Position numbers and translations under genes: made by a program
Assembly (NCBI GenBank): GCA_043814985.1
Contig: JBDRJK010000021.1
Span: 7,253-71,252, forward strand
Reading direction: 5' to 3'
Origin: Candidatus Aenigmatarchaeota archaeon
Lineage (GTDB): Archaea; Aenigmatarchaeota; Aenigmatarchaeia; Aenigmatarchaeales; Aenigmatarchaeaceae
DNA length: 64,000 nt
The notes under the pieces: generated by a model
What the model was told of the DNA's origin: nothing
Database searches by the model: none
The model's input: the letters and a program-made list of their open reading frames with translations, nothing else
Part shown: positions 1-16,540 of the stretch, piece by piece
How positions within the stretch are numbered: the first letter of the stretch is position 1
How the letters are laid out: each line of letters opens with the position of its first letter

Positions 1-3000
1 TTCCATCCACAGACTCTCCTTTTCAGCCCTGTCTCTCCATTGAGCCCAAGTGATGCTTGGGAAGTCTGGCAATTCATAAGTCGGTAAAGTGCTTCCACAA
101 GACGAATCAGCAACGCATCTGGAAGCACCATAGCCGTCAGAGGCTATGCAGCCACTAGGCGTGCATGTCCTTGTTCTCTGCCTTTGGGTAGAAGAACAAG
201 AGCCTCCCCCGCATGAGCCGCTAACCCAGTCAGTGCAGGAGCAGGTTGTCTGCTGGCTTTCAGATGCGAAAGACTGCATGACGTCGAAAAGTTCCGGATA
301 ATCCCTTATGTTCCACTCTTCTGTTCCTCCCTGCGGAGCTGGAACGTACATGAATGCTAGGGCAACATCGACTCCCAAGTCCTTCATCTTTTGAAGAGTT
401 GCTTGGTAAAAAGCTACAGTTTTCACAGGACCGTTTTCGTTTCCGCCCCATTCCGTGGCCCAGAGTTCCATTCCTGCGTTATGCGCGTCTGCAACAGCGT
501 CCTCGACGCTCTGCCAATTGCTGTCCCAAGCTACAGAATTATCATATCTTCCATCCAGATAATGGTTAATGCTAATGTAATCAAATGTGTTCTTGTACCT
601 TTCAGCATCGAATACTGGTCCATTGATTGCATAGGGGCTGTCCGGCAGGCTGTACCTGAAAGTTACTTTGGATTCAGGATCGTTGCTTTGTACCACAGCT
701 ACGGCATCGTCCCAGTAGTCCATCCATTGATTATAGAGTTGGGTATCAGAATTTGATTCCACTCTGCCAGCCTCATTCAATATTGAGTAGCTATGCTTTG
801 GATATGAGGCAAGTCCTTTTGTGTAATAGTCTATCATGTTCAGGTAGTATTGCCTGTATGTGGGATTTGTTGCAATCTGGCGCGTAGACCCGCTTATTTG
901 TCCACCTACTTGGAGATAAGGAACTGTCCATAGAGCGCTTGGTGTGATTGTATGAAAGTCAATCTGCACATTTATTCCCTTCTGCTCTGCAACTGTAAGA
1001 ATCTGTCTTAAAGCGTTTAGAGTTGAAGTACTATATTGGCCTAAAACAGGTTCAAGAACTTGCCATATAAGCCTGACACTAACATACTTGATGCCATGCT
1101 GCCTGAACATTTCAAAGTCACTTTCTATTCTGCTGTTGGAAGGTGCATCCCAAAAATAATAGTTAACACCAACTCCAAAACCATCACTTGTTGTACCTCC
1201 AGTACATGTCTGGTCAATTTGAGACTGAAAGTCGACGAGTTCATCGTATGCAGGCTCTGGGCCTCCTGCGCCGTAGATGTTGAAACCTTCGTCCAGTCCA
1301 GTCCTTCTTGTTTCCCATGCCCATGCATATGCCCTTTGCACTATTCCTGCTTCTTCAAATTTCTGCAGGCTCTGTGTATAATGGATTCTATTTTGCTCAA
1401 GGTTTGTGTTGTCGTCCCCGAACTCTATGATCCAGAGTGACTTGTTCCTAGTCTTCAAATCAGATATAGTGTTGTCCCAATGAGACCATCTACCATTGCC
1501 TTCATTTGCATTTGGATTGGACGGGTCCAGATATATGGTTAATGCGAATACATCGAACACGTCATACAATGAATCGCTGTATTTACCACTTCCAGGAGTG
1601 TACGAAAGTGTGAAGCGACATATTATGGTATGTGAGTTATCCACAGACTCTATGGCGTCATAAGTATCCCTTATTAACTGCTCCATAGGAGCCCTTTGGT
1701 CAGCAGTGTTGTACCAAGGCTCGTTTAGTATGGCCCATGATTCAAGAGCAGGATAGTCTTTCAACTCTGCTACTACTGCCTTTACATATCTAAGCCAGTA
1801 ACTTTTTGTTGGATTTAAAAGCAAGCTAAAGTAGTTAGTACCTGCCCATGAGGGGAATCCTAAATTCCAACCGAACTGCGTCCAAAAGTCCAGATTGACT
1901 TTAATCCCATTGTTGTTAGCAGCATTGAGCACCCTCTTTATATTGTTAAGGTTTCCTGTGCTTAGCTGTGCGTTTCCAGAGTTATAATTAGGCTCCATCA
2001 CGCTCCACATTACACGTACAGAGATGTGCTTTATTCCATCGTTGGCAAACCTTGAGAAATCAGCATTCAATTGGCTATCAGACTCTGACCAGGCATTGCC
2101 GCCTGATATATAATTTATTCCCATAGCCATGCAGCTGTCACCGCTGAAGGTAACAGTCGTTGTGTCGCTATCATAACCAGCACCCGCATTTACTGTAACA
2201 GTGGCAGTGCCTGGCGAGGACGAGCTTATGGTCCTAGAGCATTTGCCATTAGCATCAGCTGTGCAGCCGGATCTGTCAATGGTGCCTAAGTTTGTTGAGA
2301 AAGCTATGTATAGAGTTGGATAAGATGGGTTTGTTTGTGCTGTTAAGGTTGATGTTCCACCTACTGGTATTGATGATGGTGAAGCAGAAACTGATAAAGA
2401 TGGAGAGGAGCTTCCACAAGAAGCATCAGCAACGCATCTGCTTGTTCCCAAACCATCGGATGGAGTACAACCAGTAGGAGTGCATGTCCTTGTTCTCTGT
2501 CTTTGTGTAGAGGAACAAGAACCTCCTCCACACGATCTTGATACCCAGCCAGTGCAGGAGCAGGTTGAAGATGCTGGTGGAATAACCAAACCTAAATCTT
2601 TGTAACGTTGCCAGTTCTCATCATCTTCTCTAAGCCAAATAAAGTTGATTATAATTATGTCAGGATCAGATATGGAACGATCATAGCAATATTCAAGGAA
2701 CTCATTGAGCTCAGCTACTTCCGAACTATCAAACTCGTTTCTCTCCCTATAGTCTGCGCCAACCTCAGTGTTCGCCATCCAGGTTACACCGTTATCAATG
2801 AAGTGCTGCATATCAGCCTTTGCACTCTCTACAGTTTCATCATTGAAGTATGCGTGTATTCCTTGGTAGAATTTATTTTGAGGATCATTGATTTTATCGT
2901 AGGTATGCATCCAGAACCTGTCCATAACCAATATATTCGTTATTCCAGCTTGCCGAAGTTTCATTGTCATGTCATCCATAGTGTCATAAAAGTCATAGCC

Positions 3001-5541
3001 ATTGCTTTCTAAGTTAAACCGTGATAAGACGCTGTCCGGACCAGTTAAGGATAATTCATTGGAAAGTTCGTACCAGACCCTGTGAGAATATTCTTTGTTG
3101 TTGGTTTGTTCTAGGTTCTCGACTTGGTTCTGCGTGGAAATTATGTCATTTATTGCAGTTTGATAATTCTGCATGAATCTAACTGCACCTGAAGAATCTG
3201 GAGGATAAACATGATTTCGATCAACAATAATTATCCAATCATCTGGGGTGTTCTCAAGATAGTGTTCTATGTAAGAAAATCTGTATGGATGAACAGTTGA
3301 CGCCCATGAAGGATTATATGGTAGACGGAAAATTTTCATGTTATTTTCACTCATAAGATTTAAGACGTTGTCTATTTCTGATATTGAAGAAAAATATCCA
3401 CTAAAACCAATTAAAGGGATGTTTGTTGAAGTTGTTGTTGGTTCTTCTGATTGTTTACAGCAGCACACACCAGAGGAACAGCCGTTCTGGTCGATGGATT
3501 TTTCATCTGACGAACAGGTGGCTGTTGATGATGGAGGTTTTGTTGTTATCGGGCTTTTGCTTAAAATAATGTCGTCAAAGTAAACCGTCTTTGTAGACTC
3601 TACTACATCAGTATAATGTTTGACAGGTATCCAGTTGAATTCGTCCTGCTTGAACCGAGTCTGTATATTTCTCCAGTTCACAACTTTTGTTCCATCGATC
3701 CACACCTCAACCACTCCGTTTGTCGGATGGCGCACTACATGATATTGCATAGTGTGCCAAACTCCCCTGGTGAAATAAAAATCAGTGATTGCATCTTCCG
3801 AGTCAACTATCATCCCGTTTTCTACCTTTTGTCTGCCTAACTTGAACCTTAGTTCGTTTCCCTCGAATACAGGTTCGATACGCAAAGTGTTCTGTTCGTC
3901 AACATACTCGAACATTAGGCCTTGGAAAACAAACCATTCGTTTACTCCTGTGAGTAAGAAATCTGATGGAAAAAGGATTTTCACTTGTACCCAGTATTCT
4001 GCTTCACTGAGATATTGAATAACCTCTGTTGATCTGGCTGTGGCTGTTTCTCCTGGCGCAGTGACTTTTAGCACCCTGTTTCCACTATTTTCTGGATCAT
4101 AAGCAAAACTGATAGTTTCTGGACGATATATATGACCTTCGCCCCATCCCGTGAGTTCTCCGCCGACCAGCTGTGTCGTCGAAAAGTCATCTTGCAAAAT
4201 TATGTCTTCAGATGTTCCTTCCCCTCCTCCTGAAGTTCCTCCTTCTGCAAGAGCATTCTTCAATACCTGACCCGAAGCTGTTGGAGTTTCCCAATCATAA
4301 GCCAACAAAGCATGATTTTCCCCTTCTGCATTTGCACCTCCACCAGTGTCTTGTATCCTAAGCCACCACCATGCAACATATCCCATACTCCAATCAGTTC
4401 CATCATTGTTTTCTTGTCCGTTGGCGATTCTAGTCATTAGTCTAACAAATTCAACTTCGTCTTGGTTTCTATAATCTCCGCCAAACTCCTGAACCATTAT
4501 CGGAGCTTTATCAAGAACGTAATCCCATCCCCAATCTCTTATTTCATCTTTTATTCCTTGAACTGTATCATGTCCACCGAACTCATGTGCATATTGGTGA
4601 TAAACATAAACAAGGTTTTCTCCATCTAAGAAGTCAATATTAGGATTGTCCCGGATTGGACGAGCATCATGGCTCCACCCTTGAACTGCAACCATAATCA
4701 GATTTTTTGCTCCTGTCGAACGAATAGCGTCTATAGCTAGTTGAATTGCATCCCACCATTCTTCGTCTGTAACATCATGCGGTTCGTTCCAGGGACCAAA
4801 TATGACATAAGGATTGTCTTTGTAAAGGTTGGCTATTTCTTTCCAAGTTTCAATCCAATCATCTATGTTAGGAGGCATTCTCATTAATTGTCCACTGTAG
4901 TCATGCTCATGAGGATATGTAATAGGGTCACCTCTAACCCACCAAATCAATGAAAGATCAGTGTAGATTCCACGTTCAGCTCCCCAGTCAATTGCTTGTT
5001 GCATCTCCAGTCTGTTTTTTCCTTCCTCCCAATACTCTCTAGTGAACGGAACCCTGACATAATTCGCTCCCCATTTTTCTATTTCATCCCAAGCATGTTC
5101 TGTCCAATCAATCTCAGTTGCTGGGTCACGTCCTGGTTTTGCTATCCAATTCAATCCAGGACGGTTTACTCCACGAAGAAACACAACATTATTGTTAGAA
5201 TCCTTGATCCACCTTCCTTCTGTTTTTAATTCACCATCAGAAGGAGGCTCTACTGGCGGTGTTCCAGAAAATCTGCAAGTTCCTGAGTAAGATGCGCCGA
5301 ATTGCAATTGGCATGCTTGGTTGCAATTCTCACTTGGTGTAATATCATCTGGAGGCGTAGTATCATCAGGAATATTGCCAAAGACTGTTGAAATAGCAGT
5401 GTTTATAAGATCCATTGCTTCATGTTCTCCTTCTGTCGTAAAAGCAAGCCCATAGTTTATAATAATCATAAAAGCGCTCGCGCCTAATAATGCTAACAAG
5501 ACAACTGTGAAAAAGCCCCATGTACCTCCCTTAAAGGCCAT
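1..5541 (-). CDS. Giant membrane-anchored multidomain glycoside hydrolase (>=1847 aa, 3' end outside window): pilin-like N-terminus, 4 GH-A/GH5-like domains, lyase/ConA-like domain, TSP1-like repeats, Big_1 Ig
   Basis: Hand translation from ATG 5541 (MAFKGGTWGFFTVVLLALLGASAFMIII) stays open to base 1. GH5 motifs: LRGVN, WGANYVRVP, WNEPH, NLVYVYHQY, PIMVQEFG. Further acid/base and nucleophile pairs: YELSNE/ANTEVG, AILNEPW/WIIEFG, SILNEAG/WATEWG. Not in the ORF track because there is no stop in the window. Confidence 0.93.
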   Translation of the reverse strand, partial: MAFKGGTWGFFTVVLLALLGASAFMIIINYGLAFTTEGEHEAMDLINTAISTVFGNIPDDTTPPDDITPSENCNQACQLQFGASYSGTCRFSGTPPVEPPSDGELKTEGRWIKDSNNNVVFLRGVNRPGLNWIAKPGRDPATEIDWTEHAWDEIEKWGANYVRVPFTREYWEEGKNRLEMQQAIDWGAERGIYTDLSLIWWVRGDPITYPHEHDYSGQLMRMPPNIDDWIETWKEIANLYKDNPYVIFGPWNEPHDVTDEEWWDAIQLAIDAIRSTGAKNLIMVAVQGWSHDARPIRDNPNIDFLDGENLVYVYHQYAHEFGGHDTVQGIKDEIRDWGWDYVLDKAPIMVQEFGGDYRNQDEVEFVRLMTRIANGQENNDGTDWSMGYVAWWWLRIQDTGGGANAEGENHALLAYDWETPTASGQVLKNALAEGGTSGGGEGTSEDIILQDDFSTTQLVGGELTGWGEGHIYRPETISFAYDPENSGNRVLKVTAPGETATARSTEVIQYLSEAEYWVQVKILFPSDFLLTGVNEWFVFQGLMFEYVDEQNTLRIEPVFEGNELRFKLGRQKVENGMIVDSEDAITDFYFTRGVWHTMQYHVVRHPTNGVVEVWIDGTKVVNWRNIQTRFKQDEFNWIPVKHYTDVVESTKTVYFDDIILSKSPITTKPPSSTATCSSDEKSIDQNGCSSGVCCCKQSEEPTTTSTNIPLIGFSGYFSSISEIDNVLNLMSENNMKIFRLPYNPSWASTVHPYRFSYIEHYLENTPDDWIIIVDRNHVYPPDSSGAVRFMQNYQTAINDIISTQNQVENLEQTNNKEYSHRVWYELSNELSLTGPDSVLSRFNLESNGYDFYDTMDDMTMKLRQAGITNILVMDRFWMHTYDKINDPQNKFYQGIHAYFNDETVESAKADMQHFIDNGVTWMANTEVGADYRERNEFDSSEVAELNEFLEYCYDRSISDPDIIIINFIWLREDDENWQRYKDLGLVIPPASSTCSCTGWVSRSCGGGSCSSTQRQRTRTCTPTGCTPSDGLGTSRCVADASCGSSSPSLSVSASPSSIPVGGTSTLTAQTNPSYPTLYIAFSTNLGTIDRSGCTADANGKCSRTISSSSPGTATVTVNAGAGYDSDTTTVTFSGDSCMAMGINYISGGNAWSESDSQLNADFSRFANDGIKHISVRVMWSVMEPNYNSGNAQLSTGNLNNIKRVLNAANNNGIKVNLDFWTQFGWNLGFPSWAGTNYFSLLLNPTKSYWLRYVKAVVAELKDYPALESWAILNEPWYNTADQRAPMEQLIRDTYDAIESVDNSHTIICRFTLSYTPGSGKYSDSLYDVFDVFALTIYLDPSNPNANEGNGRWSHWDNTISDLKTRNKSLWIIEFGDDNTNLEQNRIHYTQSLQKFEEAGIVQRAYAWAWETRRTGLDEGFNIYGAGGPEPAYDELVDFQSQIDQTCTGGTTSDGFGVGVNYYFWDAPSNSRIESDFEMFRQHGIKYVSVRLIWQVLEPVLGQYSTSTLNALRQILTVAEQKGINVQIDFHTITPSALWTVPYLQVGGQISGSTRQIATNPTYRQYYLNMIDYYTKGLASYPKHSYSILNEAGRVESNSDTQLYNQWMDYWDDAVAVVQSNDPESKVTFRYSLPDSPYAINGPVFDAERYKNTFDYISINHYLDGRYDNSVAWDSNWQSVEDAVADAHNAGMELWATEWGGNENGPVKTVAFYQATLQKMKDLGVDVALAFMYVPAPQGGTEEWNIRDYPELFDVMQSFASESQQTTCSCTDWVSGSCGGGSCSSTQRQRTRTCTPSGCIASDGYGASRCVADSSCGSTLPTYELPDFPSITWAQWRDRAEKESLWME
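91..247 (-). repeat. Cys-rich TSP1-like repeat, copy B (copy A at 2410-2566)
   Basis: TCSCTDWVSGSCGGGSCSSTQRQRTRTCTPSGCIASDGYGASRCVADSSCGS, colinear with copy A at an offset of 2319 nt. Confidence 0.9.
2410..2566 (-). repeat. Cys-rich TSP1-like repeat, copy A
   Basis: TCSCTGWVSRSCGGGSCSSTQRQRTRTCTPTGCTPSDGLGTSRCVADASCGS. Confidence 0.9.
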
Positions 5542-5563
5542 ATATAGAAATATCAATTGTCTG

Positions 5564-5575
5564 GCTTATAAATTT
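5564..5575 (-). promoter_or_regulatory. Putative TATA box for a leaderless transcript of the giant GH gene
   Basis: Minus-strand TTTATAAG about 24-31 nt upstream of ATG 5541. Confidence 0.55.
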
Positions 5576-5596: not shown

Positions 5597-8227
5597 TCAA
5601 CTTAAGTACAACAAAAATTCCTCGTACCTAATCATGCCTTCGCTCTCTCCTGCTAATGCTATCGTATATGTTCCTTCAGGTGTTCCTGGTTCCACTTCAA
5701 TTGTCATCATAGAACCGGGCGGCCCTTCAACAGGGTTAGTGTCAAAGCTGACAGTTATTCCTGTTACTTGTGGGTAAATGGTATAGCTAAGGTAAATGGG
5801 CTTTCTGTCAGGGCCCAAATAATCTATTGTTATGAAAGTTTCTAGGGTTTGGGTATCATCGAGGCTCTTGTCTATTTTCACTAATTGCGATTTGACTCCT
5901 TCCTGATTCTCTGCTTTATCAACTGAGAAATACCTCACATAGCTTGTTCCCCCCGACAGGATGAATGTGGAATAATATATTGATTCAGAAGGGTCACACC
6001 AGTCATTATTAGCATAGCAATAAAAAGTTTTATCACAGCCACTAACATCATCCGAGCATTTTAGCGATATGCTGACATCTCTGTTATACCAGCACTGGTC
6101 AAGGCAGGTCTGGTCATTGCACTGTATTGTTGTTATTGGTGGGAAAATGTCAGCACATTTTATATCATAGCTACAAGAGTATGAACCTTCAGTACATCTT
6201 TCAAAGTCCTCGCAGTCGTCATGGAGATTAAATTCATTGGAAACTGTTGCGCCATTGCACAGATAGCTGGAGCCAGAGCAATACCTGTCTTGATAGCTCA
6301 CGTATACGTCATCCCCACAAGCAGTTCCGTCGCGGCACTCATAGACAGCATCGTAATTCTCATCGCAAAGATATGTGTCTTGCCTGTATAAGTCAGTGGG
6401 GCATGTTGAGCTCGAGCCAGTACAGTATTCTGTTAAATCGCAGGTTCCTCTAGAAGCCCTGCATGGAAAATTAGATTCCCTGTAGTTGCAGCCATCACAG
6501 CAAACTCCAGACGAGCATTCGCAGTCACAGCTGGGATCATAGCTACAAGAGGATGAACCTTCAGTACATCTTTCAGTGTCTGAGCAACCATCATAAAACT
6601 GGTAGTTGGTCCAGTTTGTTGCGCCATTGCACAGATAGCTGGAGCCAGAGCAATGTCTCTCATTATACCTCACGGCTACATCATCGCCACACTCAGTTCC
6701 CCAATAACAACTATAGTCAGTCTGATAATAATAATTGCAGATATAGCTGGAAGACCTGAAATTGCCGCTGGTGTCGCAGCATGGTCCAGAGCCTGGTGCG
6801 CAATCATTTTGTGTGATTTGTGTAAAGGTGACAGTCGTTGTATCAGGTTCATAGCCACCTGCATCTGCTGTCACAGTTGCAGTGCCTGCTGTATTAGAGG
6901 TTATTGTCACAGAGTACTTTCCTGTGCTGTCGGCTGTGCCTGATGATCTTGACAGAGTGCCTAGAGTTGTTGAGAAAACTATGTACAATCCTACATTAAC
7001 CGGGTTTGAGTATGCTGTAAGTGTTGATGTTGTTGTACCGTCTGCTGGTACGGAGGATGGTGAAGCAATCAATGTTAATCTAGGTTCTCCTCCAGAACTT
7101 TGACATGTTCCACTAATACAAGTATCAGTTCCAGAACATGTTCCACAGCTTCCACTACAACCATCAGACCCACAATTCTTTCCTACACAGTTGGGTGTAC
7201 AATCAAAATATGCGATAAATGTACCTACCACACCTGCCAATGCGTTGAATGACGGCAAGGGGCTAAAAGTCTGAGTGTAACCGTTTGATGCCCACATATA
7301 ATCTAAAGCATAGCCGGGGTAGTTAGAAGCTGATATTGATACATAGGTGCCAGCAGCAACTGTTATTGTTTTGCTTGTTGATGTGCATTGGCTGTTAAGA
7401 CATATCTGGCCCCAGTTCTGAGGCGAAACCATGATTGTATATGTGGCATCGTCTTCAGCAATAAGATTGCATTCCCCGTTTTGACATTCATATCCATTTG
7501 AACATGTTCCGCAGTTAATCGTCCCTCCGCAACCATTATTCTGAACTCCACATTCGTAACCAAGACTCCAGCACGTGTTAGGACATTCACACTTGCAGTT
7601 TTCATTACAAAAACCATCGCCAACACATAGGTTATCATTTCGTATTGTAGTACCACAGCCACCAGACATGGTACAACCAGATTCACAACATTCACTTCTA
7701 CAATTGCAGAATTCCTCTTCCCAACAGGAACAATAGAAGCTTGGGTCTTTATTGTATCCAATTCCAAAATTTACACAACTATAGTGGCATGTCTCGCCAG
7801 CACAAAAGGGAAAACCATTACAAAGGTTTATATTTTGACCAATACCAGCTACACTATATCCTTCTTGTTCGCATTTGTAATCGCATGGCTGAACAGGACA
7901 TTGTGCCGGACAATTACAGTAATCACAATGAACATCATCCCAGCAGTAACATATTATCCATTCAGAACCAAGACGTTCAGAGCAGTCACTAGGACCAATC
8001 TCATGACAATTATAGCGGCATGTCTCGCCAGTACAATAAGGAAAACCACTACAAGGATTTGGATCTCTAAAACTACATCCTCCATAATCATAACCACTGC
8101 ATGCATCAGTACATTCTGAGGCAATAACCCCCGTTGAAAATAAGAGAAAGATGTTTAAGGATAAAAATAATACAAGGTATTTACATATTGGATTTTTACT
8201 GATATTTATCACCATTGAAACCTTCAT
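5597..8227 (-). CDS. Secreted Cys-rich adhesin-like protein (876 aa) with Big_1, disintegrin-like, internal repeats and a C-terminal Ig-like domain
   Basis: Sec-like signal LVLFLSLNIFLLFSTGVIA; very Cys-rich; ASPSSVPADG...FSTTLGTL...AGTATVTA (Big_1); CCDGCNY...CRASRGTCDLTEYCTGSSSTCPTD (disintegrin-like). Confidence 0.85.
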   Translation of the reverse strand: MKVSMVINISKNPICKYLVLFLSLNIFLLFSTGVIASECTDACSGYDYGGCSFRDPNPCSGFPYCTGETCRYNCHEIGPSDCSERLGSEWIICYCWDDVHCDYCNCPAQCPVQPCDYKCEQEGYSVAGIGQNINLCNGFPFCAGETCHYSCVNFGIGYNKDPSFYCSCWEEEFCNCRSECCESGCTMSGGCGTTIRNDNLCVGDGFCNENCKCECPNTCWSLGYECGVQNNGCGGTINCGTCSNGYECQNGECNLIAEDDATYTIMVSPQNWGQICLNSQCTSTSKTITVAAGTYVSISASNYPGYALDYMWASNGYTQTFSPLPSFNALAGVVGTFIAYFDCTPNCVGKNCGSDGCSGSCGTCSGTDTCISGTCQSSGGEPRLTLIASPSSVPADGTTTSTLTAYSNPVNVGLYIVFSTTLGTLSRSSGTADSTGKYSVTITSNTAGTATVTADAGGYEPDTTTVTFTQITQNDCAPGSGPCCDTSGNFRSSSYICNYYYQTDYSCYWGTECGDDVAVRYNERHCSGSSYLCNGATNWTNYQFYDGCSDTERCTEGSSSCSYDPSCDCECSSGVCCDGCNYRESNFPCRASRGTCDLTEYCTGSSSTCPTDLYRQDTYLCDENYDAVYECRDGTACGDDVYVSYQDRYCSGSSYLCNGATVSNEFNLHDDCEDFERCTEGSYSCSYDIKCADIFPPITTIQCNDQTCLDQCWYNRDVSISLKCSDDVSGCDKTFYCYANNDWCDPSESIYYSTFILSGGTSYVRYFSVDKAENQEGVKSQLVKIDKSLDDTQTLETFITIDYLGPDRKPIYLSYTIYPQVTGITVSFDTNPVEGPPGSMMTIEVEPGTPEGTYTIALAGESEGMIRYEEFLLYLS
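6245..6654. repeat. Intragenic direct repeat with an identical 38-bp core (6245-6282 = 6617-6654), period 372 nt
   Basis: tgttgcgccattgcacagatagctggagccagagcaat occurs twice; peptide repeat CGDDVxV...CSGSSYLCNGAT...ERCTEGSxSCSYD. Confidence 0.9.
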
Positions 8228-9272
8228 TCTTTAGATACATTTCAAATATAATAGAGTCATCTTTGACAATTTTGGTAACCAATATTTTTCCGTCATACCT
8301 GTAAAAATCAAATCTATTAGGATTATCTTCTTGTGAGGTTAAATATTCCAGTTCTGCATCATCTGAAGAAAATGGGAAAACCATTGCTTTGATTAAGGAG
8401 AATATGTTTTCAAAATCTGTTTCTGAAAAAATAATACTGGAAATTCCTGAGTCTAAATCATAATTTATTACGAGGTTTTCTTCCGAACCCTCACAAAAGA
8501 TATTTAGAGAGTATTCATTCTGATACATGCGTATATAATCTAGTCTGCAAATACTCAAAATCTGAAAAGCTATTCTAGCTTTTTCATCAAAAGGGAGTTT
8601 CTCATCGACTATTATTGGGAAAGAATATGATGTTTTGTTCAAATTAAAGTTTAAAATTGTGTCATAGTAATTACAGGTAAGTTTTACAGACGAAAACATC
8701 TCTTCATTATGAACAAATTCATCATAATCATAAGGCGAGCAATTGTAGAATTCCTTTATGTCTTCATGAACAACATCAGTAAACTCTTCATCTCTACCGT
8801 TTTCAAGCTTAAAGTTGTCAACATCAAAATAATATATCTTAACTATTCCATTATCACAGTAAAAGAACAGATTGTTGTTTTTGGAGTAAAGGAAGTCGCA
8901 GTTGTTATTAGTCAAATCATTGAATACACCCGGTTGTTCCCTCAAAAAAGACCAGCCGTTCATGTCACTAATAATATTTCCGTTTTCAAATTCGGCATAG
9001 TATGGTCTGTCATTGCAAATCATCCAGAACTTGTCGCTGTCTAGGCTTAACTCCTCTCTTTTAATGTCGCAGAACTCTAGATCAGCTTCTAATAATTCCA
9101 AAACAGTTTCTCTGCCTAATGAATCTTGAAGGGAACTGTCCTTTGGTTCCCCATACAAATAATTTATTGACAAGAATATCGCAAATACTATTATCAGACT
9201 TATCAACAATGGCACAAAAACATTCAAGTCCAGTTTCAAGGCTCCAGTAGATTTTCTTTTTCTCATGGGCAT
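8196..9272 (-). CDS. Hypothetical membrane-anchored acidic protein (T4P locus)
   Basis: 358-aa ORF; basic N-terminus then one TM helix; overlaps both neighbours. Confidence 0.8.
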   Translation of the reverse strand: MPMRKRKSTGALKLDLNVFVPLLISLIIVFAIFLSINYLYGEPKDSSLQDSLGRETVLELLEADLEFCDIKREELSLDSDKFWMICNDRPYYAEFENGNIISDMNGWSFLREQPGVFNDLTNNNCDFLYSKNNNLFFYCDNGIVKIYYFDVDNFKLENGRDEEFTDVVHEDIKEFYNCSPYDYDEFVHNEEMFSSVKLTCNYYDTILNFNLNKTSYSFPIIVDEKLPFDEKARIAFQILSICRLDYIRMYQNEYSLNIFCEGSEENLVINYDLDSGISSIIFSETDFENIFSLIKAMVFPFSSDDAELEYLTSQEDNPNRFDFYRYDGKILVTKIVKDDSIIFEMYLKNEGFNGDKYQ

Positions 9273-10150
9273 ACCACCTTAAAGGTTACTGAACCAGGGT
9301 CGACTGTTAAACCAAAATCGAATTCAAGCTCATCATCACCTGTTATTTCCTTCTTATACTTGAATCTTAGTTCAACATACTCATAAGGAATTAATGCATT
9401 AATGGAACTAGGTTCCCCTGGTTTCAAAGGTGCCAGGCAATACGCGTCAGAATGAGGACAATAGCCTACAATGGTTATCTCCACAATATTTTCGTCTATG
9501 TTTGCTATCCTGTTGAAATCTAAGCCAACAAATCTGGGGTCCCCGCTTCCTTTCAGATTATACAATTCATTCACAAGAGCTCCAGGATTGCTTAGAATAT
9601 CTTCAAAATGAGAATCCTCCATTATGGCCCTGCCTGCATTAAGCAGTTTGAAGTAATTGGAGTCTATTATAGAATCAATTTTATGGTCAACAGATATTCT
9701 AGCATCAATGCCTTCGTCATAAAAAGAAATGTACCTGCTTCCCCTTACAAAAAATTGCGTCGAGGCATGGTCATTAACGTCTATTTCAGCCTCATCGAAA
9801 TTTACGCTTATGCTTCCCTTTTCATAGGACTTGGGCATGTTCCTCTTTATCCTTCTCACCAGTTCATCTTCTAGGGTTTGGATTTTGGGATAATCTGGTG
9901 TCCAGAAATCCTCGTATTCCAGGCCGCCAGTTTTACCCAGTTCAAAGGCAGCTCTCTGAGAAATGAAATATAAACTCTGGTCAAATGACTTCAAAAGAAG
10001 TTCAGCCTGGTTTGAAAATGATAACAGCTTGCCCTCTACAGTCACTATGTTCCTTTCAACATTGTATCCCATGTTCAGTCTCAGCAAGAACAGACTGGTG
10101 AGTATGAGTGTTATTCCCACGAAAGCATATGCCCAAACCTGACCTTTCAT
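9263..10150 (-). CDS. Pilin-like protein (class III signal-like), 295 aa
   Basis: Start moved to MKG|QVWAYAFVGITLILTSLFLL (ATGA-type overlap with upstream gene). Confidence 0.78.
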   Translation of the reverse strand: MKGQVWAYAFVGITLILTSLFLLRLNMGYNVERNIVTVEGKLLSFSNQAELLLKSFDQSLYFISQRAAFELGKTGGLEYEDFWTPDYPKIQTLEDELVRRIKRNMPKSYEKGSISVNFDEAEIDVNDHASTQFFVRGSRYISFYDEGIDARISVDHKIDSIIDSNYFKLLNAGRAIMEDSHFEDILSNPGALVNELYNLKGSGDPRFVGLDFNRIANIDENIVEITIVGYCPHSDAYCLAPLKPGEPSSINALIPYEYVELRFKYKKEITGDDELEFDFGLTVDPGSVTFKVVCP

Positions 10151-10653
10151 TTTACATACACCCAAAGCTTTAATTCAACATCTGTTCCGTCCAATGTAAA
10201 CAATTTTGTTGAGCTCTCCTGAACGCGCAGCGGAGTCCTGGGCAGTGATGGCATGTTCTCTTGGACAATTATTATTTCCCTTGTGCCGGTGACTGCTTTT
10301 AACAGGTAAGGCTCGTCAATCCTTGAGGACAAGAAGTTTTCACAAACCGAGCTCAAGTCTATTAAATTGCCTTCCAACCATACTACAGTGTTTTCCTGGA
10401 TCGCCACTGCGTTCAGTATCTTTTTTATTGGCATTCCATTATTCTCGTACTCCATCAGTGATAGTAATGTTGTGTCATATCTAACAGGATTGAAAAATAA
10501 GGTTAGCTCAACGGTTCTCGTTGTTGCAACGCCCAAATTAGTCTCGACATTATAGAGGAGAATAAAGGCCCACAAAATAAGCATTGAAAGCATTATCACT
10601 CCTAATAGGACGAATATCGAGAATATGTCTGAGAAAAGCTGGAATCCCTTCAT
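10147..10653 (-). CDS. Pilin-like protein
   Basis: MKG|FQLFSDIFSIFVLLGVIMLSMLILW; translationally coupled. Confidence 0.78.
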   Translation of the reverse strand: MKGFQLFSDIFSIFVLLGVIMLSMLILWAFILLYNVETNLGVATTRTVELTLFFNPVRYDTTLLSLMEYENNGMPIKKILNAVAIQENTVVWLEGNLIDLSSVCENFLSSRIDEPYLLKAVTGTREIIIVQENMPSLPRTPLRVQESSTKLFTLDGTDVELKLWVYVK

Positions 10654-11048
10654 AGCCTAACCACCAACTCGCCAGGGACTTTCTGGCCATTCCCTAATTC
10701 AACCAGGACATCAAAAACCGCCTTGTCATCCATGAAAGGCTCTGAGCCCAGGAGCACTGTCCTGCTGAAACTTTCGGTTGTTATCTCTATTTCTCCAGCA
10801 GGGTAGTCGAAGCAAGAATCAAGGCTGTCTATTTTTGACTGTAGTATTATGCCCTTCATCCCGTTATTCAGGCAAGGGGATGACATCAGGGCATTTCCTA
10901 AAACATACGCTTCCCTGTTCGCGTCGTTCCTGTAAACAGTAATCTCATAAGTTACATAGGTGAAGAATATCGCCAAGGCTCCCATTACCATCAGTGCTAT
11001 CTGCACTAATTTTATGAAAGTCGATGTTAATTCGGACTGTCCTTTCAT
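10650..11048 (-). CDS. Pilin-like protein
   Basis: MKG|QSELTSTFIKLVQIALMVMGALAIFF, a typical archaeal KG-Q cleavage motif. Confidence 0.82.
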   Translation of the reverse strand: MKGQSELTSTFIKLVQIALMVMGALAIFFTYVTYEITVYRNDANREAYVLGNALMSSPCLNNGMKGIILQSKIDSLDSCFDYPAGEIEITTESFSRTVLLGSEPFMDDKAVFDVLVELGNGQKVPGELVVRL

Positions 11049-11050
11049 CT

Positions 11051-11542
11051 TTACACCGATATTGTTTCTGCTTTTGGATATTCAGGGGTTGGGGCACCAA
11101 TAGATAGGAAGCAAGTCCCATCACTTCTCTCTATCTTTTTAACAGTTATTGTTTGCTTCAAGCCTCTCTTGAGCTTTATTTCTTGTTCATATATTTCACA
11201 GTCAGATGCAAATGCAGTTGGCTCTATTGTTGCAAACTTTGCCTTCAGGTAATAGTCCCCAGGAGGAATAATATGGACGTAGTTCACACCATCCTCTTCA
11301 TAAACACTTATAGTGTATGCCTGCCCTGTTGTTTCAGTGCTTGCCACGAACTCTCCTGGTGCGAAACTGCCTATTGACATGCTTGATGTTAGCCAGTTTT
11401 GAAGCAGGATAGGCTCTACGAACATGAGATAATAGAAGGTGTTGCTTGCAATGCCCTCTTGCCCGAACAGGGTTACCAGTATTACTAAGAGAACAATGAC
11501 TTCTGCAACAAATTTTAGAAAATCCTTTGTTATTTCACTCAT
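11051..11542 (-). CDS. Pilin-like/membrane-anchored protein
   Basis: 163 aa, N-terminal hydrophobic helix, in operon. Confidence 0.72.
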   Translation of the reverse strand: MSEITKDFLKFVAEVIVLLVILVTLFGQEGIASNTFYYLMFVEPILLQNWLTSSMSIGSFAPGEFVASTETTGQAYTISVYEEDGVNYVHIIPPGDYYLKAKFATIEPTAFASDCEIYEQEIKLKRGLKQTITVKKIERSDGTCFLSIGAPTPEYPKAETISV

Positions 11543-11574
11543 AAAATATAATTCATTTGGTATTTAATTATAGG

Positions 11575-14133
11575 TTACCCACCTTCCAACTCTTCCTTGA
11601 CGTTTGCTGCTCCCTCAAGAGGAACTTGAGTGGCGCCCTGTACCAGCTCGTTCCAGGTCAATGGCTTCCACGGTTCTAGAGGCCAGCTTATCATAGACTC
11701 TAAAACTGCTTGGAACAATGATGATGGGTCCACCCAATCAAATATCTTCCATATCTTACTGTTTATAGCTTTTTTGAACACACCACTAGCCTTGTTGTGG
11801 ACGCCGCCAACTATTAATTGTGCAATATCAGTAGCATCAGATGCGAGCCAGGCTCCAGCATATGCATTTACCAGGTCAGTGTCTGCATAGCAATAGTTTG
11901 AGGCAGTGTCGTTCAGGTCAAACCTTTCTATGTCGACGAATATTGTCCACTCGCCCTCGTATCTAGTTTTCCACACCTTGGCCTCTGCAAAGCACGGTCC
12001 AACAGCATAAAACCTTGGATGCTCTGGCACAGCCATTAGAAGTGCTGAATAACCTGCAAATTGGGACCATGCTGTTACTGGTCTCCAAACTCTTATGAAG
12101 TAGTCTTTGGCACTTTCCTTCAAGTAAAAGGGATATTCGTCTAAAGATCCATGGGAGAAGACGCAGAGAGAATTTCCCAGACAACCTTCATAATCGCTCA
12201 GGAATAGCCCCAAAGCTATTGAGTTGGTTGGTGTTATCAGGTTCCTTGCCTTGTACCAGACTGGTCTTGTACGTTTTACATATTTCTTCAGTGTCTCATC
12301 CCATTTGTTATACCAAGGTCTGCTGTCCTGCTTGAAAAGACTAATTACTACCCCATCATCTACATCAGCCCAAGGTTCCAAACCTTTAGCATTAGCCCAG
12401 TCCTTGATATACCTCTCGAACCAGACTTGGGGCATTTTTTGTCGAGTGCCTGCTGGACCATACAAATTCGATATATCATCGTAAATCTTCAAAATCTCGC
12501 TGTCAGAGATTGCCACGTCAAAATTGGGAAGACTGCGTAAATGATCTACAATGCCTAGATTAGGACCTGTATTAGGACCTGTAGTAGCTCTAGGAATCCC
12601 ATCTAGTATTCCATTTGCTATATCTTCGTAACTATTAACCCTCAAATGAGTGGGGAACATCATTATGCCAGCTTCTGTAGTTAAGGGGTTATAGAGATTG
12701 TCAAGTGCATCCAAGGGATCTGTAACACCCATTGCTTTTAATTTATCTGGTATTCCAGTAGAGTCTGTTAAGACACCATTAACCTTAACACCAACCTCAT
12801 CCCAAGAATTCCTAAGCCCTGTCAATAAACCATTTCCTGCAGGATCCAGAATATCATCTGAGAATAAAACTGTCCTTTCAACATTGAATTTTGTTAGCAC
12901 ATCATCAATTAAGATACCGTCAGCGTATTTAGCCAATTCTTCATTAATTGTCCGTCTTTTCAAAAAATCATTATAGTAATTTGTTTTTTTCAGGTCATCT
13001 AAAGTTGCTTGTATTGCCCCTGTTTCATCAAATGCCAATGTGCTTTCTAAAGATCTAGCTCGTCTCTGATCTACAGGATTAGGGCTTGTTTTCAACTCAT
13101 CAATTTGATCCTGTAACACCTCTGCTGTGCTACTTGTTTCAAAAAGGTAGTCATTCTTATTTACACCTTCTGTAAGAGCTTCTCCTATTGTGTTGGTTTC
13201 ATAATCGTATCTGAATGCTACTACCCCTGGACGACCTCCCTCACTGATACTTTCAGGAGGAAGTATGCCTCCTGGGCAATCATTGCATTTCAAAAACCCA
13301 TAGGCAACATCCTCTTTCTCACCTCGTATTATCATTCTATTAGTTAGGGGCCTCCGTGTATTGTCTACCACAATTTGTCCATTAGATGTTATCATGAATT
13401 TATTACCTGATTTTTTCAATATCCCTATATCACTAAGGCCTTCTACTATTTCATCAAACTGTTTTTCTGTCAGTTGGTTGGCAACTTTGATAGCTTCGCG
13501 TCCATCAACAGTTTTGAAACCGTTCAAGAAATTTTTAAAATCAACATCATCAAGAAGTTTATTAGGTCTGAAGATTGAATCAAACAAGTTAAAATTAATC
13601 TCATCTATTTTGCCGGCTATCCTTCTGTAAGTATTAATTCTCTTTATACCCTTCCAAATCTTAGGTCCCCATGACACGAGTTCAACTCCAGTAGATACTG
13701 CCTTTAGACCACCCCAGAATATCAGTGTGGAGCCTGCACCACCGCTCCAAGGATAGTTTTCTGTCCACAGTCCTTGCCAACCAAAGACCGTCCTTCCCGG
13801 GTCCGGGAACTTCTCGTAATATATCTTGTACTCAGGCTCACCACCAAAATACCTAAGCATAGTTTCATAGTTGCCGTAATTTTGCTGGCACAGTCTTATA
13901 AAGGATTTTCTATAATATGCCACATTGTCATTGCTGGGAACCCCGTCCTCGTAGTTCCAAAATGGAAAGTCCTCCCTTGAAACATCATTTATGGCGTTCA
14001 TCAAGTGGAATGCTGTTGTGTTTGCCAGGTCATCGCATTCCGGGGAGCCGAGTATGTGATTGAGTGCAAAAAGAACCACAATGAAAACAACTAGCATTAG
14101 AACAATAACAATTGGTATGTTTGTCGCTTTCAT
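11575..14133 (-). CDS. Large pilin-like-anchored protein (852 aa), function unknown
   Basis: MKA|TNIPIVIVLMLVVFIVVLFAL; long ORF. Confidence 0.8.
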   Translation of the reverse strand: MKATNIPIVIVLMLVVFIVVLFALNHILGSPECDDLANTTAFHLMNAINDVSREDFPFWNYEDGVPSNDNVAYYRKSFIRLCQQNYGNYETMLRYFGGEPEYKIYYEKFPDPGRTVFGWQGLWTENYPWSGGAGSTLIFWGGLKAVSTGVELVSWGPKIWKGIKRINTYRRIAGKIDEINFNLFDSIFRPNKLLDDVDFKNFLNGFKTVDGREAIKVANQLTEKQFDEIVEGLSDIGILKKSGNKFMITSNGQIVVDNTRRPLTNRMIIRGEKEDVAYGFLKCNDCPGGILPPESISEGGRPGVVAFRYDYETNTIGEALTEGVNKNDYLFETSSTAEVLQDQIDELKTSPNPVDQRRARSLESTLAFDETGAIQATLDDLKKTNYYNDFLKRRTINEELAKYADGILIDDVLTKFNVERTVLFSDDILDPAGNGLLTGLRNSWDEVGVKVNGVLTDSTGIPDKLKAMGVTDPLDALDNLYNPLTTEAGIMMFPTHLRVNSYEDIANGILDGIPRATTGPNTGPNLGIVDHLRSLPNFDVAISDSEILKIYDDISNLYGPAGTRQKMPQVWFERYIKDWANAKGLEPWADVDDGVVISLFKQDSRPWYNKWDETLKKYVKRTRPVWYKARNLITPTNSIALGLFLSDYEGCLGNSLCVFSHGSLDEYPFYLKESAKDYFIRVWRPVTAWSQFAGYSALLMAVPEHPRFYAVGPCFAEAKVWKTRYEGEWTIFVDIERFDLNDTASNYCYADTDLVNAYAGAWLASDATDIAQLIVGGVHNKASGVFKKAINSKIWKIFDWVDPSSLFQAVLESMISWPLEPWKPLTWNELVQGATQVPLEGAANVKEELEGG

Positions 14134-14150
14134 TATATATCAACATTAAT

Positions 14151-14456
14151 TTACTGTTTGGGTGGGCAGGAGCAATAAACTTCCAAGTCTTTGACAGTTT
14201 GAATTTTTAAACGTTCGAAAGCCAATGTATACAAATCCCCTCCACTCGGGTCTTCTTCAATGCACTGTATATCTTGAATTACACTGATGCTTGTGGGACA
14301 GCCATATGCCCTGTATTTAATGCAGCAGTTTCTCATTTCATTCTGCAGATTTAAATCTTCACCAAAAGGAAGTATGTTTCCTGTTACCAACAGCGCTCCT
14401 ACAACTATAACAATTAAGAAAATTACAAGCAATACCAACTTATCTAAAGCCATCAT
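14151..14456 (-). CDS. Small Cys-rich pilin-like protein
   Basis: N-terminal TM helix, 6 Cys in the globular part, ATGA overlap. Confidence 0.75.
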   Translation of the reverse strand: MMALDKLVLLVIFLIVIVVGALLVTGNILPFGEDLNLQNEMRNCCIKYRAYGCPTSISVIQDIQCIEEDPSGGDLYTLAFERLKIQTVKDLEVYCSCPPKQ

Positions 14457-14767
14457 ATTTTAGCCTTACAAAGGTTTCTACAATTATCTATGTCCCAATT
14501 TGACATGTCGTCGTCAGGGGGTTTCCCAAGGGCAGTTGCACAGTTCTCATTCACAGGGTATATCTCATTGTTTGCTATAACGTTTTGACCTTTACCTTCT
14601 CTGTAGTCTCCAACTCCCCAGTAAATACAGAACTGCCTGAAGTCTATTTGATTGCCTGTGTCCTCCCCGAAGGAGAAAACAGGATTGACCACAATTATCG
14701 CTATTACTAGGAGAATAATGACTACAAATATCAAACCTAAAAGCACCTCTAATTCTAAGCCCTTCAT
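14453..14767 (-). CDS. Small pilin-like protein
   Basis: MKG|LELEVLLGLIFVVIILLVIAIIVV; 4 Cys. Confidence 0.82.
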   Translation of the reverse strand: MKGLELEVLLGLIFVVIILLVIAIIVVNPVFSFGEDTGNQIDFRQFCIYWGVGDYREGKGQNVIANNEIYPVNENCATALGKPPDDDMSNWDIDNCRNLCKAKI

Positions 14768-14771
14768 ATAA

Positions 14772-16043
14772 TCACGTTATACAATTAGTGCACCAAATGC
14801 TGATGGTTGTGTCATACTTGTCAACGCAAATTGGATATTCCACCGTTCCTGCAATTATATTAAACCAGTTTTTGACTGAAACTATGTACGTTCTCACTAG
14901 GGTCTCATGACCCAGTTTTCCATTGGCAGTAATTCCGCCACCAATCTTGATTGTAACAGGAACACGACCTTGACCTTGACACCATCTACCTTCTGTAATT
15001 TTTGATGAAAGGCAATCCTGTTCAGACAGACATGACTCATCATCAGTTATGGTAGTACCTGAAAAAAGGTCTCTTAACTTTTGCATGGTAAAGGGACTTT
15101 GTGTTGGTTGTATGACTACAGTCGCACGATAGACTTCCCTGGCCTCTTCATACCAATGACCGATAATATCGGTCTTTCTGGTGTTACTTAATACATCAGC
15201 AATAAAATCAAACTTATCTTCAGGCCTATTTACTGGGATTTCCTCAAAATGTAACTCGTACTGCAGATTGGTGGGATACCACACTGTACCGTAGATGTAC
15301 TCTTTGCCGCTTTCTAATACCTTGTTATAAATCCATTCAATGTTGTCCCTACCTTGATCTCCACCATCACAAAAATCATCCCCAACATTGCTCCCACCGT
15401 CACAGTGTCTATCCCAATTTCCTATATTGTTCGCATTAGGGACAAAGCAAGCATTGTTGCCAAACTCAGTTAAAACGCCATCTATGGGGTCTGCAAATTC
15501 ATCCGAACAAATGTACTTATCATCTAAAGTCCTGTCCTTCAAGTTGTAGTTTACGCAGATCTCGTCAAGGAGCGGTATGGCTGTCCCACCCTCTTGGCAG
15601 AAATTACATCCTTCAGTAAGGCTTCCTGTTCCTCCTGGATTATTCCTACCCGCTTCAAGCTCGAATCTTTTAATGTCTATTAGGCATTTTGTGCCTAGGC
15701 AGTTTTTGCCGTTGCCAATATCCCTGGTTTCAGAAAAACCCTTGGATATAAAATCATCTGAAATGGTATTTGCTATTTCACATGCAACCTCGGAAGGCTG
15801 TCTTGGTCCTGCATTTCCTGAATACCTATCAAAGTAATCATCAACATACTCTAGCGGTCCCAAGGCATCCTCTTTCGAAATGTCGAACTCATTACCAACA
15901 TCGTACCCCGGAACTGTTCTGCCAAGAATATCAATGAGCGACTCCTTTGTGACTATCTGGAAAAGGAAAATAGCAAAGGCTATTAACAGAACAAGGAAAA
16001 GGATTTTCGGAAGGTAATCAATCAACGTTCCCATTACGCCCAT
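14772..16043 (-). CDS. Membrane-anchored Cys-containing protein, paralog of the N-terminal half of 16541-19504
   Basis: Shared blocks QPSExACxIAN, CQEGGTAIPLLDExCVN, FGNNxCxVPN, NWDxHCxGG. Confidence 0.82.
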   Translation of the reverse strand: MGVMGTLIDYLPKILFLVLLIAFAIFLFQIVTKESLIDILGRTVPGYDVGNEFDISKEDALGPLEYVDDYFDRYSGNAGPRQPSEVACEIANTISDDFISKGFSETRDIGNGKNCLGTKCLIDIKRFELEAGRNNPGGTGSLTEGCNFCQEGGTAIPLLDEICVNYNLKDRTLDDKYICSDEFADPIDGVLTEFGNNACFVPNANNIGNWDRHCDGGSNVGDDFCDGGDQGRDNIEWIYNKVLESGKEYIYGTVWYPTNLQYELHFEEIPVNRPEDKFDFIADVLSNTRKTDIIGHWYEEAREVYRATVVIQPTQSPFTMQKLRDLFSGTTITDDESCLSEQDCLSSKITEGRWCQGQGRVPVTIKIGGGITANGKLGHETLVRTYIVSVKNWFNIIAGTVEYPICVDKYDTTISIWCTNCIT

Positions 16044-16107
16044 AAATCCTATTGGTTAGAACTATATATTAAATGTTTTGTTTTCTTCTGATTAAATTGT
16101 GATATTT

Positions 16108-16503
16108 CTATGAGCACTTGTTGTCAGACCCGCAACTGCCCATTATGCAGTCAGCATCTGTCATGCAGCCGCAGAACGGCTGAAAATCCCCAGGATATAC
16201 TGTTATGCATCTTGTGCCGTCTTCTTGGTTTAGGCAATCTTCATGGGTCTTGCAAATCTCCATTTCCCTGTCATATTCACTGAAACGTTCGGGATCATAG
16301 CTGTAATCATTGTCAGCGTTCAAATCAGTGTGACACCCAGGGTCTTCCTTGTCAACCAACATGTCATTATCGTTGTCCCTTCCGTCACTGCATTCCGGAA
16401 TTTTTTCTGACTGATTGCCCATCCAGCTTCCTACCAGCACGGCTAGAAACACTATTAAAATAATGAAAGCCATTAAAACTATAATGTCATTGTCGCCTTT
16501 CAT
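16108..16503 (-). CDS. Pilin-like protein with an Asp-rich putative Ca-binding loop and a small Cys domain
   Basis: MKG|DNDIIVLMAFIILIVFLAVLV; ECSDGRDNDNDMLVDKEDPGC. Confidence 0.78.
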   Translation of the reverse strand: MKGDNDIIVLMAFIILIVFLAVLVGSWMGNQSEKIPECSDGRDNDNDMLVDKEDPGCHTDLNADNDYSYDPERFSEYDREMEICKTHEDCLNQEDGTRCITVYPGDFQPFCGCMTDADCIMGSCGSDNKCS

Positions 16504-16540
16504 AAGAAAGATATTCTATTTTTAGAATATAAAATTAGGG

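Follow-up and report, generated by a model that had tools for sequence, protein, structure and literature searches.

We analysed a stretch of 64,000 nucleotides (the window below) from the genome of a Candidatus Aenigmatarchaeota archaeon: C21:7253-71252, where C21 is contig JBDRJK010000021.1 of assembly GCA_043814985.1 (G000 in our set). At its left edge, on the minus strand, lies a giant gene whose product carries four barrels of the glycoside hydrolase family 5 (GH5) type, a polysaccharide-lyase-like jelly-roll, an immunoglobulin (Ig)-like domain, two Cys-rich repeats and a C-terminal peptidase domain of family M14. Upstream of it on the same strand lie small genes encoding candidate pilins, followed by the genes for the platform protein and the assembly ATPase of a type IV filament (T4F). 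Among the genomes compared, giant modular enzymes are, as far as their sequences tell, repeatedly tied to one small pilin-like family, once by gene fusion.

When open reading frames (ORFs) were listed with open ends and translated, the giant gene appeared as a single minus-strand frame at window positions 1..5556, comprising 1,852 codons from a TTG without a stop and open at the window's left edge. The original prediction had described a hidden, uninterrupted frame continuing past the window. The continuation was borne out: the stop lies at C21:6473 (codon 6473-6475), giving a complete gene of 2,111 codons from the TTG or 2,106 from an ATG, and the gene spans 6,333 nt without a stop. The frame was hidden only in the sense that it is missing from the default ORF list, because ORFs leaving a window are not listed by default; the public (NCBI) protein set already holds the exact ATG-start protein of 2,106 amino acids (aa), and the TTG version is absent from that set. 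The ATG lies at window 5541 (5541-5539, minus strand), and the N-terminus reads MAFKG. A TATA-like box, TTTATAA, was read from the sequence at 5566..5572 on the minus strand, 31 nt upstream of the ATG, where it may act as a promoter element; TTTATAT(A) stands at an equal distance from the ATG in several other genes of the locus. We prefer the ATG as the start because of this locus-typical spacing and because of the 2,106-aa version in the public set. Residue numbers of the giant are counted from the TTG throughout.

We then assigned the domains. Scanned as a whole against Pfam, the giant matched Cellulase/GH5 (PF00150) with 153.6 bits in four stretches and Polysacc_lyase (PF14099) with 40.7 bits. 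A piecewise Pfam scan showed that the domain order and coordinates proposed earlier were essentially right. Four clan GH-A barrels had been claimed on one chain, each keeping the Asn-Glu acid/base and a later Glu, and all four were recovered: barrels 1, 3 and 4 by PF00150, whose curated cut-off is 23.5 bits, and barrel 2 by a family profile and a structural model. Barrel 1 (4222..5244, minus strand; residues 105-445; candidate catalytic E258 and E357) scored 100.7 bits with PF00150 and matched 43 solved GH5 sequences at E<=0.01 with the NEP motif in register. Aligned with the barrel-2 family by hhalign, it gave a probability of 82.6%, with NE, H.Y and E aligned.

Barrel 2 (2542..3459, minus strand; residues 700-1005; candidate catalytic E834 and E931) is divergent. 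Taken alone, it had no match in Pfam, and phmmer against solved structures returned nothing meaningful. An exhaustive phmmer search among 1.84 billion proteins found relatives in 142 representative clusters at E<=1e-3. Barrel 2 and 43 short members were aligned as a family of 44 sequences, in which H83, E131, E135, H202, Y204, E232 and G234 are invariant and R45, N134 and W275 are at least 90% conserved. The family thus keeps, invariant or at that level, the whole of what we take to be the GH5 signature set (R, H, N, E, H, Y, E, W). The family profile matched 94 solved GH5 sequences at E<=1, the best being 5ecu (E=6.9e-16), and the NE and TE motifs line up; PF00150 matches 34 of the 44 members, the giant's own copy being among the other 10. 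AlphaFold (AF2), given the 44-sequence alignment, produced a model with alternating beta strands and alpha helices, a predicted local distance difference test (pLDDT) score of 90.9 and a predicted template modelling (pTM) score of 0.89, compared with a pLDDT of 34.1 from the single sequence. Foldseek found 354 matches of this model in the PDB at E<=0.001, and all those listed are GH5 cellulases or mannanases, with probability 1.00 and template modelling (TM) scores of 0.48-0.58. The candidate Glu residues had been expected at the ends of strands beta4 and beta7; in the model E834 falls just after strand 128-131 and E931 within strand 227-234 (strands in the numbering of the modelled piece). 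Barrel 2 is the one barrel whose (beta/alpha)8 fold was checked by a model.

Barrel 3 (1177..2121, minus strand; residues 1146-1460; candidate catalytic E1279 and E1378) scored 36.6 bits with PF00150 and matched the GH5 beta-mannanases 3wfl and 3ziz at E ~3e-5 with NEP aligned. Barrel 4 (202..1176, minus strand; residues 1461-1785; candidate catalytic E1595 and E1702) scored 29.8 bits with PF00150 and 28.3 bits with GH42, for which the cut-off is 21 bits. Compared singly with the barrel-2 profile by hhalign, barrels 3 and 4 gave no significant match (probabilities of 2.4% and 2.6%). As a family of eight sequences, in which NE and the nucleophile Glu are kept in 8/8, their profile aligned with the barrel-2 family at a probability of 90.7%, with NE, Y, E and W in register. 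The His and Tyr near strand 6 are kept in barrels 1 and 4. The barrels share ~20-30% identity among themselves; among solved proteins, barrels 1 and 2 come closest to endoglucanases and barrel 3 to mannanases. By these alignments, all four barrels are of the GH5 type within clan GH-A, with both catalytic Glu in register, and we infer that they would be catalytically active with differing specificities.

The remaining domains are of several kinds. The lyase-like beta-jelly-roll of the original prediction is present at 3517..4221 (minus strand; residues 446-680), with 46.0 bits for PF14099 against a cut-off of 29.9. Its nearest Atlas clusters are PF14099 or heparin-lyase-I-like (score 0.96), and a sequence search against solved structures returned one non-significant match. 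The domain could be a lyase or a glycan binder. The two predicted Cys repeats were also recovered, as copy 1 at 2404..2565 (residues 998-1051) and copy 2 at 88..246 (residues 1771-1823), both on the minus strand. They correspond to the sole internal DNA repeat of the gene, a 171-nt direct repeat with 77% identity between the copies. The unit of ~55 residues, with the pattern CSCTxWV..CGGGSCSSTQRQRTRTC..., had no Pfam match reported and presumably resembles the W/C/R pattern of thrombospondin type-1-like repeats; Cys-rich modules of two other proteins, P0144 and P0145, are 61-69% identical to it. For the Ig-like domain (2146..2391, minus strand), which had been called Big_1, Big_1 is indeed the best match, at 26.1 bits and thus below the cut-off of 34.9; the domain also weakly matches Invasin_D3, Big_3_5 and PKD.

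Window positions 1..87 (minus strand) encode the start of the C-terminal region, and the M14 domain itself lies outside the window, at C21:6476-7252. The C-terminal 326 aa of the giant matched Peptidase_M14 (PF00246) with 100.3 bits against a cut-off of 21.6, and its HGNE and NRNF motifs and third His (in NLHTG) align with carboxypeptidases D and B. The NCBIfam model for MpaA gave 25.5 bits (cut-off 157). This is the only M14 match in the genome. The protein had been read as glycan-degrading, which fits its four GH5-type barrels; the M14 domain beyond the window adds a peptidase, and the picture therefore shifts from a pure glycanase to a glycanase plus peptidase. From the motifs that it keeps, we consider the giant to be probably a catalytically active enzyme of this combined kind.

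The surrounding genes had been taken for a type IV pilus locus, and the ATPase and platform genes agree with that: they are adjacent, upstream of the giant and on the same strand. The predicted assembly ATPase of the FlaI/TadA family (22376..24607, minus strand) matched PF00437 (T2SSE) with 52.7 bits and, in NCBIfam, FlaI with 123.9 bits (far below the cut-off of 550) and a TadA-family model with 105.5 bits. The T2SSF-like platform protein (20294..22375, minus strand) matched PF00482 with 25.6 bits against a cut-off of 25.2. Between these and the giant, packed co-directional genes occupy 8196..19504 (minus strand) in the ORF list, all of their products having N-terminal hydrophobic helices. 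The run totals about a dozen helix-starting genes and includes two large products (852 and 987 aa); the genes that were scanned matched no Pfam families. Five genes start with M(x)KG (9263-10165, 10147-10653, 10650-11048, 14453-14767 and 16108-16503), and for small proteins of this sort the label pilin-like refers to size, MKG leader and helix. The last of these five encodes a Cys-rich protein of 131 aa with an MKG leader and helix, which matched the "acidic double-disulfide repeat" model NF033662 with 32.6 bits, below its cut-off of 41.

Directly upstream of the giant lies a gene for a secreted protein of 876 aa, a likely adhesin (5597..8227, minus strand). It scored 44.7 bits with Big_1, and 30.3 bits with Disintegrin and 26.5 bits with an OmpL47-type barrel, both below cut-off. 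It shares with the giant a 51%-identical stretch covering part of the Cys repeat and the Ig-like domain. On the other side of the giant there is one small ORF on the opposite strand, followed by five small genes that start with MKG[IM]ELP... or contain MKGIALP..., together with an Alba gene. The giant had been placed at the end of the locus; it does close the co-directional run, but five more small pilin-like genes come after the opposite-strand ORF. Outside the window, the small pilin-like genes are interspersed with those for an archaeal 16S rRNA and two tRNAs and with an Alba-like gene (C21:1700-3285 and 4257-4580); the 16S rRNA on the contig is complete (1,324.7 bits). Elsewhere in the window, a 92-nt tRNA at 45492-45583 (minus strand) was reported by ARAGORN as "tRNA-???" with the loop "cata" and scored 52.7 bits with the Rfam tRNA model; it is possibly an intron-containing archaeal tRNA. 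A gene for a Peptidase_A24 prepilin peptidase lies on another contig (C11:82298-82642, 42.5 bits). Taken together, the ATPase, the platform protein and the small M(x)KG genes, as putative pilin genes, point to an archaeal type IV filament locus with its peptidase encoded elsewhere. The genome holds five T2SSE-type ATPase matches over cut-off, on C19, C15, C1, C21 and C13, and several clusters of genes with an M(K/R)G leader and helix.

Within this genome PF00150 occurs in three ORFs, with eight stretches in all. One of them encodes a paralogue of the giant at C19:5815-12930 (2,371 aa, starting MRGVELS...). Its first 104 aa are homologous to the small pilin-like proteins beside the window's giant (E=1e-11). 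They are followed by GH5 (52.5 bits), a barrel-2-type GH5 (45.2), GH5 (83.3), a GH39/GH5-like domain (32.5), two PA14 domains and a C-terminal Peptidase_M64 (60.1 bits). By its domains, this paralogue follows the plan of the window's giant with a different peptidase. An hmmscan of the whole paralogue (E<=0.001) omitted PF00150, which was found in pieces of the protein and by the genome search. The paralogue belongs to a second island of giant enzymes with three large secreted proteins (C19:5-16117, L099). The first ORF of the island, of at least 1,920 aa and open at the contig start, matched GHL15 with 65 bits, metallophosphoesterase with 43.3 and a PF14099-like domain with 26.3 (below cut-off); the third large protein, after a 201-aa ORF, is an S8 subtilase of 847 aa. 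The window's giant and the two giants on C19 take more than 2% of the genome's DNA, and in each of them glycanases occur together with a peptidase or other hydrolases. The third GH5 protein lies at C21:95881-98061 (L101); it has 726 aa and a PF00150 score of 95.6 bits, its N-terminal half is rich in Cys, and its N-terminus is of the Sec or anchor type.

Neighbouring pairs of a pilin-like gene and a large protein gene were found at further sites. On C8, a small pilin-like gene lies directly upstream of the gene for a large PA14 protein. In a genome of the same genus (G001), the pair consists of a small pilin-like gene and a frame of at least 5,153 aa, which overlap by 4 nt; the frame has four PA14 domains, GH5 and a polysaccharide-lyase-like domain, and by synteny this pair corresponds to the one on C8. 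In a related metagenome-assembled genome (MAG), L019, a pilin-like gene is followed by the gene for a 1,406-aa GH5 protein at a different syntenic site. The relatives found with P0145 as query numbered 89 (80 kept), mostly through the widespread LamG domain, and only L019 was informative; the search for related loci with barrel 3 found no relative.

Single modules of the giant recur in other proteins. The best barrel-2 homologue (P0002, 815 aa) has an archaellin- or pilin-like N-terminus (Arch_flagellin 27.2 bits, cut-off 29.5), LamG and GH5, and another (P0047) combines M14, dockerin, LamG and GH5. P0144, of 3,087 aa, shares with the giant barrel 3 (55% identity), the Cys repeat (62-67%) and M14 (35%). 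A search for full-length homologues in a band of 1,161-3,695 aa returned two proteins, each sharing single modules only. Among 41 genomes (its own and 40 relatives), the giant had any match in 7 and a full-length match in none, and GH5 was found in 5, its own included, a patchy distribution. Judged by these comparisons, modules are shuffled between giants.

The overall reading that we favour, with a probability of roughly 60%, is that the giant is an extracellular, cell-attached multi-enzyme, linked to the filament system and cleaving a polymer of a cell envelope or matrix. For the link, the strongest support comes indirectly, from the pilin-fused C19 paralogue and from the recurring pairs of pilin-like and giant genes. 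As to the giant's own N-terminus, window positions 5437..5541 (minus strand) encode the MAFKG leader and a hydrophobic helix of ~30 residues, a candidate class III (prepilin-type) signal or signal anchor. Class III signals have a short hydrophilic leader ending in Gly or Ala, followed by ~21 or more hydrophobic residues (as given in the main text of PMC8179133), and the giant has such a leader in MAFKG, followed by ~30 mostly hydrophobic residues. It also fits a crude pattern of [KR][GA] plus a hydrophobic stretch, as do 48 of the 950 ORFs of the genome. The FlaFind-type pattern does not fit even the small pilin-like proteins of the locus and was left aside as a test. The original prediction had called the giant pilin-anchored, and we regard this as plausible: the K-G leader, the hydrophobic stretch, the A24 peptidase, the pilin-fused paralogue and the recurring gene pairs speak for it, whereas the points on the pilin head, the residue after the leader and the helix given below speak against it. 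A functional link to the pilin system seems to us slightly favoured, and for processing as a prepilin we would offer a little less than even odds.

Several observations weigh against this reading. Neither a paralogue nor a pilin head was found when the giant's first 110 aa were compared with the other ORFs of the genome, and its N-terminal 99 aa had no pilin or other match in Pfam. A Gly follows the K-G of the giant, unlike in every other listed K/R-G protein, and its helix contains A-S-A, a motif of signal peptidase I and thus a possible cleavage site; a Sec signal or a signal anchor is therefore a possible alternative. The giant has its own TATA-like box, so that co-transcription with the filament genes is not required, and the five small pilin-like genes beyond it are set off by an ORF on the opposite strand. 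No Pfam family matches the small pilin-like proteins, and for the one examined the closest Atlas clusters are unnamed archaeal ones, mostly from Aenigmatarchaeota and Nanobdellota. As for catalysis, W and T replace two conserved His in barrel 3, barrel 4 has only weak residue-level matches to solved structures, and the equivalents of Tyr248 (AY...) and Glu270 (LIEF) in the M14 domain were assigned by motif only. As for expression, no RNA run holding the giant gene is listed among the sequencing runs.

The strongest competing explanation is an ordinary Sec-exported glycanase and peptidase, with a signal peptide cut at A-S-A or a type II anchor, which would share a surface island with the filament genes and have no link to a pilus. 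The missing pilin head, the A-S-A in the helix and the separate TATA-like box would all suit such a protein. So would the giants on C8 and in G001 and L019, which have classical Sec-type signal peptides and no K-G leader, and the 142 barrel-2 representatives, of which 5 show the crude pilin pattern and 40 some N-terminal hydrophobic segment. On the other hand, a hydrophobic stretch of ~30 residues is long for the h-region of a Sec signal and continues past A-S-A, and MAFKG is similar to the MKG leaders of neighbouring genes. The fusion of the C19 paralogue to a pilin-like domain and the adjacency of pilin and giant at three or more distinct loci also weigh against it. We give this explanation a real but minority chance.

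A second alternative is that the barrels and the jelly-roll are non-catalytic, lectin-like glycan binders and that the giant is an adhesin for attachment to a host or surface. The richness of the 876-aa neighbour and of related giants in Big_1, PA14 and LamG would agree with this, as would the two replaced His of barrel 3. However, 4/4 barrels keep the two catalytic Glu residues as well as the Asn preceding the acid/base, the eight signature residues are invariant or nearly so across the 44 sequences of the barrel-2 family, and the zinc- and substrate-binding motifs of the M14 domain are intact. We consider an adhesin without catalysis very improbable.

To judge the assembly we used public sequencing data. 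The sequence is present in three runs (X1, X2 and X3) from two studies of groundwater and biofilm metagenomes, and the contigs of these runs tile the giant ORF, mostly with 0 mismatches; some bins of the gene are without contig cover in X2 and X3. Every domain boundary is bridged by contigs of both X1 and X2 with 0 mismatches; X3, from the other study, has contigs across several of them. It alone counts as independent, since either of the other two runs could be the sample of origin. The original prediction would have had to be given up if reads had shown the ORF to be chimeric, and the tiling and bridging contigs point the other way: an assembly chimera is unlikely, and the gene with its domain architecture is almost certainly real. 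Two further observations came from the same contigs. One X1 contig joins across 552 nt (184 codons, in frame) at window 3619-4172 (L003:10871-11424), removing most of the PF14099 domain. It has two other differences and a short side of 48 nt, and therefore probably comes from another organism or strain, one that may lack the PF14099 module. At window 4336-5283 (L003:11588-12535, barrel 1), contigs of X1 and X2 add up to a depth two to three times as high as elsewhere in the gene. The extra depth comes from additional contigs with many differences, which suggests a related sequence like barrel 1 from another strain or species in the samples. An artefactual long frame, from a chimeric assembly or a decaying pseudogene, might be suspected from the metagenomic origin of the genome, the internal Cys-rich repeats and the joining X1 contig, but is hardly credible given 6,333 stop-free nt, repeat copies only 77% identical over 171 nt, the bridged boundaries and recognisable families with intact motifs in every domain.

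How might the multi-enzyme that we favour work? The giant would be exported, and its N-terminus of MAFKG plus helix would keep it at the membrane. In the most likely mode, this would be a class III signal cut after Gly5 by the A24 peptidase of the genome. The enzyme could then be mounted on a type IV filament of the neighbouring small pilin-like proteins, or sit at its base or tip. Four glycanases, a lyase-like or binding jelly-roll and a carboxypeptidase would be presented on long, disulfide-stiffened spacers and an Ig-like domain, and together they would cleave glycans and peptides of an extracellular polymer, either a host cell envelope or a biofilm matrix of extracellular polymeric substances. 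The original prediction had likewise proposed glycans of a host cell wall or S-layer and extracellular polymeric substances as possible substrates.

Such cleavage would serve to gain access or to attach, and not to feed on sugars in bulk. The genome, presumably that of a DPANN-like archaeon judging by its archaeal 16S rRNA, its size and the taxa in the Atlas clusters closest to a small pilin-like protein of the locus, has 807,958 bases in 21 contigs, with a completeness of 91.2% and a contamination of 0.9%. In this 91%-complete genome, the ATP-binding cassette (ABC) permease family BPD_transp_1 was not found by a search that gave a match in 14/14 known genomes as a control, and GH1 and pyruvate kinase were not found either; enolase and two major facilitator superfamily transporters are present. 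The absence of matches to these three families mildly favours the opening of a host envelope or matrix over sugar feeding. We also put forward, tentatively, an "enzymatic pilus" as a catalytic counterpart of the archaeal bindosome: T4F machineries would display giant multi-enzyme subunits as a drill that opens envelopes or matrices for an episymbiont without conventional sugar import and fermentation. It could come in three variants, namely fused to a pilin (the C19 paralogue and P0002), with a bare prepilin-type helix (the window's giant), or docked to an adjacent small pilin (C8, G001 and L019).

Some known systems resemble this arrangement in part. In bacterial modular type IV pilins, such as PilB and PilC of Streptococcus sanguinis, a module is placed behind the class III signal and pilin module (Raynaud et al. 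2021, PMC8179133). According to the main text of that paper, the modules include lectin, PA14 and S74 or M26 peptidase domains, most of these proteins have two modules, and the largest has 860 residues; the word "hydrolase" is absent from that main text, its supplementary datasets standing apart. The likeness is that of a functional module grafted for display on a filament, and the C19 paralogue fits this plan. The present case differs in that it concerns an archaeon and proteins of 2,106 and 2,371 residues with four glycosidase domains and a zinc peptidase, and in that the window's giant is without a pilin head. In the archaeal bindosome, solute-binding proteins with class III signals work with ABC transporters and are proposed to "functionalise" T4F machinery; ordered T4F loci are described as rare in DPANN archaea (Sivabalasarma & Albers 2026, PMC13705601, the latter in section 7). 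The main text of this source, its supplementary tables apart, contains neither "hydrolase" nor "enzym". What is alike, as far as that text goes, is that non-pilin proteins with a prepilin-type N-terminus use T4F machinery at the cell surface. Here, by contrast, the cargo would be enzymes, the whole-giant scan gave no solute-binding (SBP) family, no BPD_transp_1 permease was found, and the locus is ordered.

Caldicellulosiruptor has multi-catalytic glycoside hydrolases of the CelA type, with several hydrolase domains per chain, linkers and binding modules, encoded beside a type IV pilus locus and tapirin genes. The giant differs from these and from cellulosomal enzymes: no dockerin, cohesin or carbohydrate-binding module was detected in the whole-giant scan at E<=0.1, its GH5-type barrels are joined with PF14099 and M14 domains, and its genome is archaeal, of 808 kb and seemingly without sugar ABC import. 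GH5 is known as a cellulase-type family in DPANN MAGs, with 229 matches in a bulk CAZy count (PMC12153355); architecture, pilin context and giant multi-domain proteins go unmentioned in its main-text passages on that count. In the literature searched, supplements aside, we found no description of pilin-linked giants with several GH5 domains and a peptidase in archaea.

The routes by which DPANN archaea attach to, or gain access to, their partners or substrates are largely unknown. Even without a physical link to the filament, the giant offers four divergent GH5 enzymes in compact form, with barrel 2 in a distinct subfamily of 142 clusters. If the link is physical, it would carry the ideas of the modular pilin and the bindosome beyond binding modules, to multi-enzyme machines and into archaea, and the proteins described here would be concrete, testable candidates for the apparatus with which an uncultured lineage interacts with its hosts.

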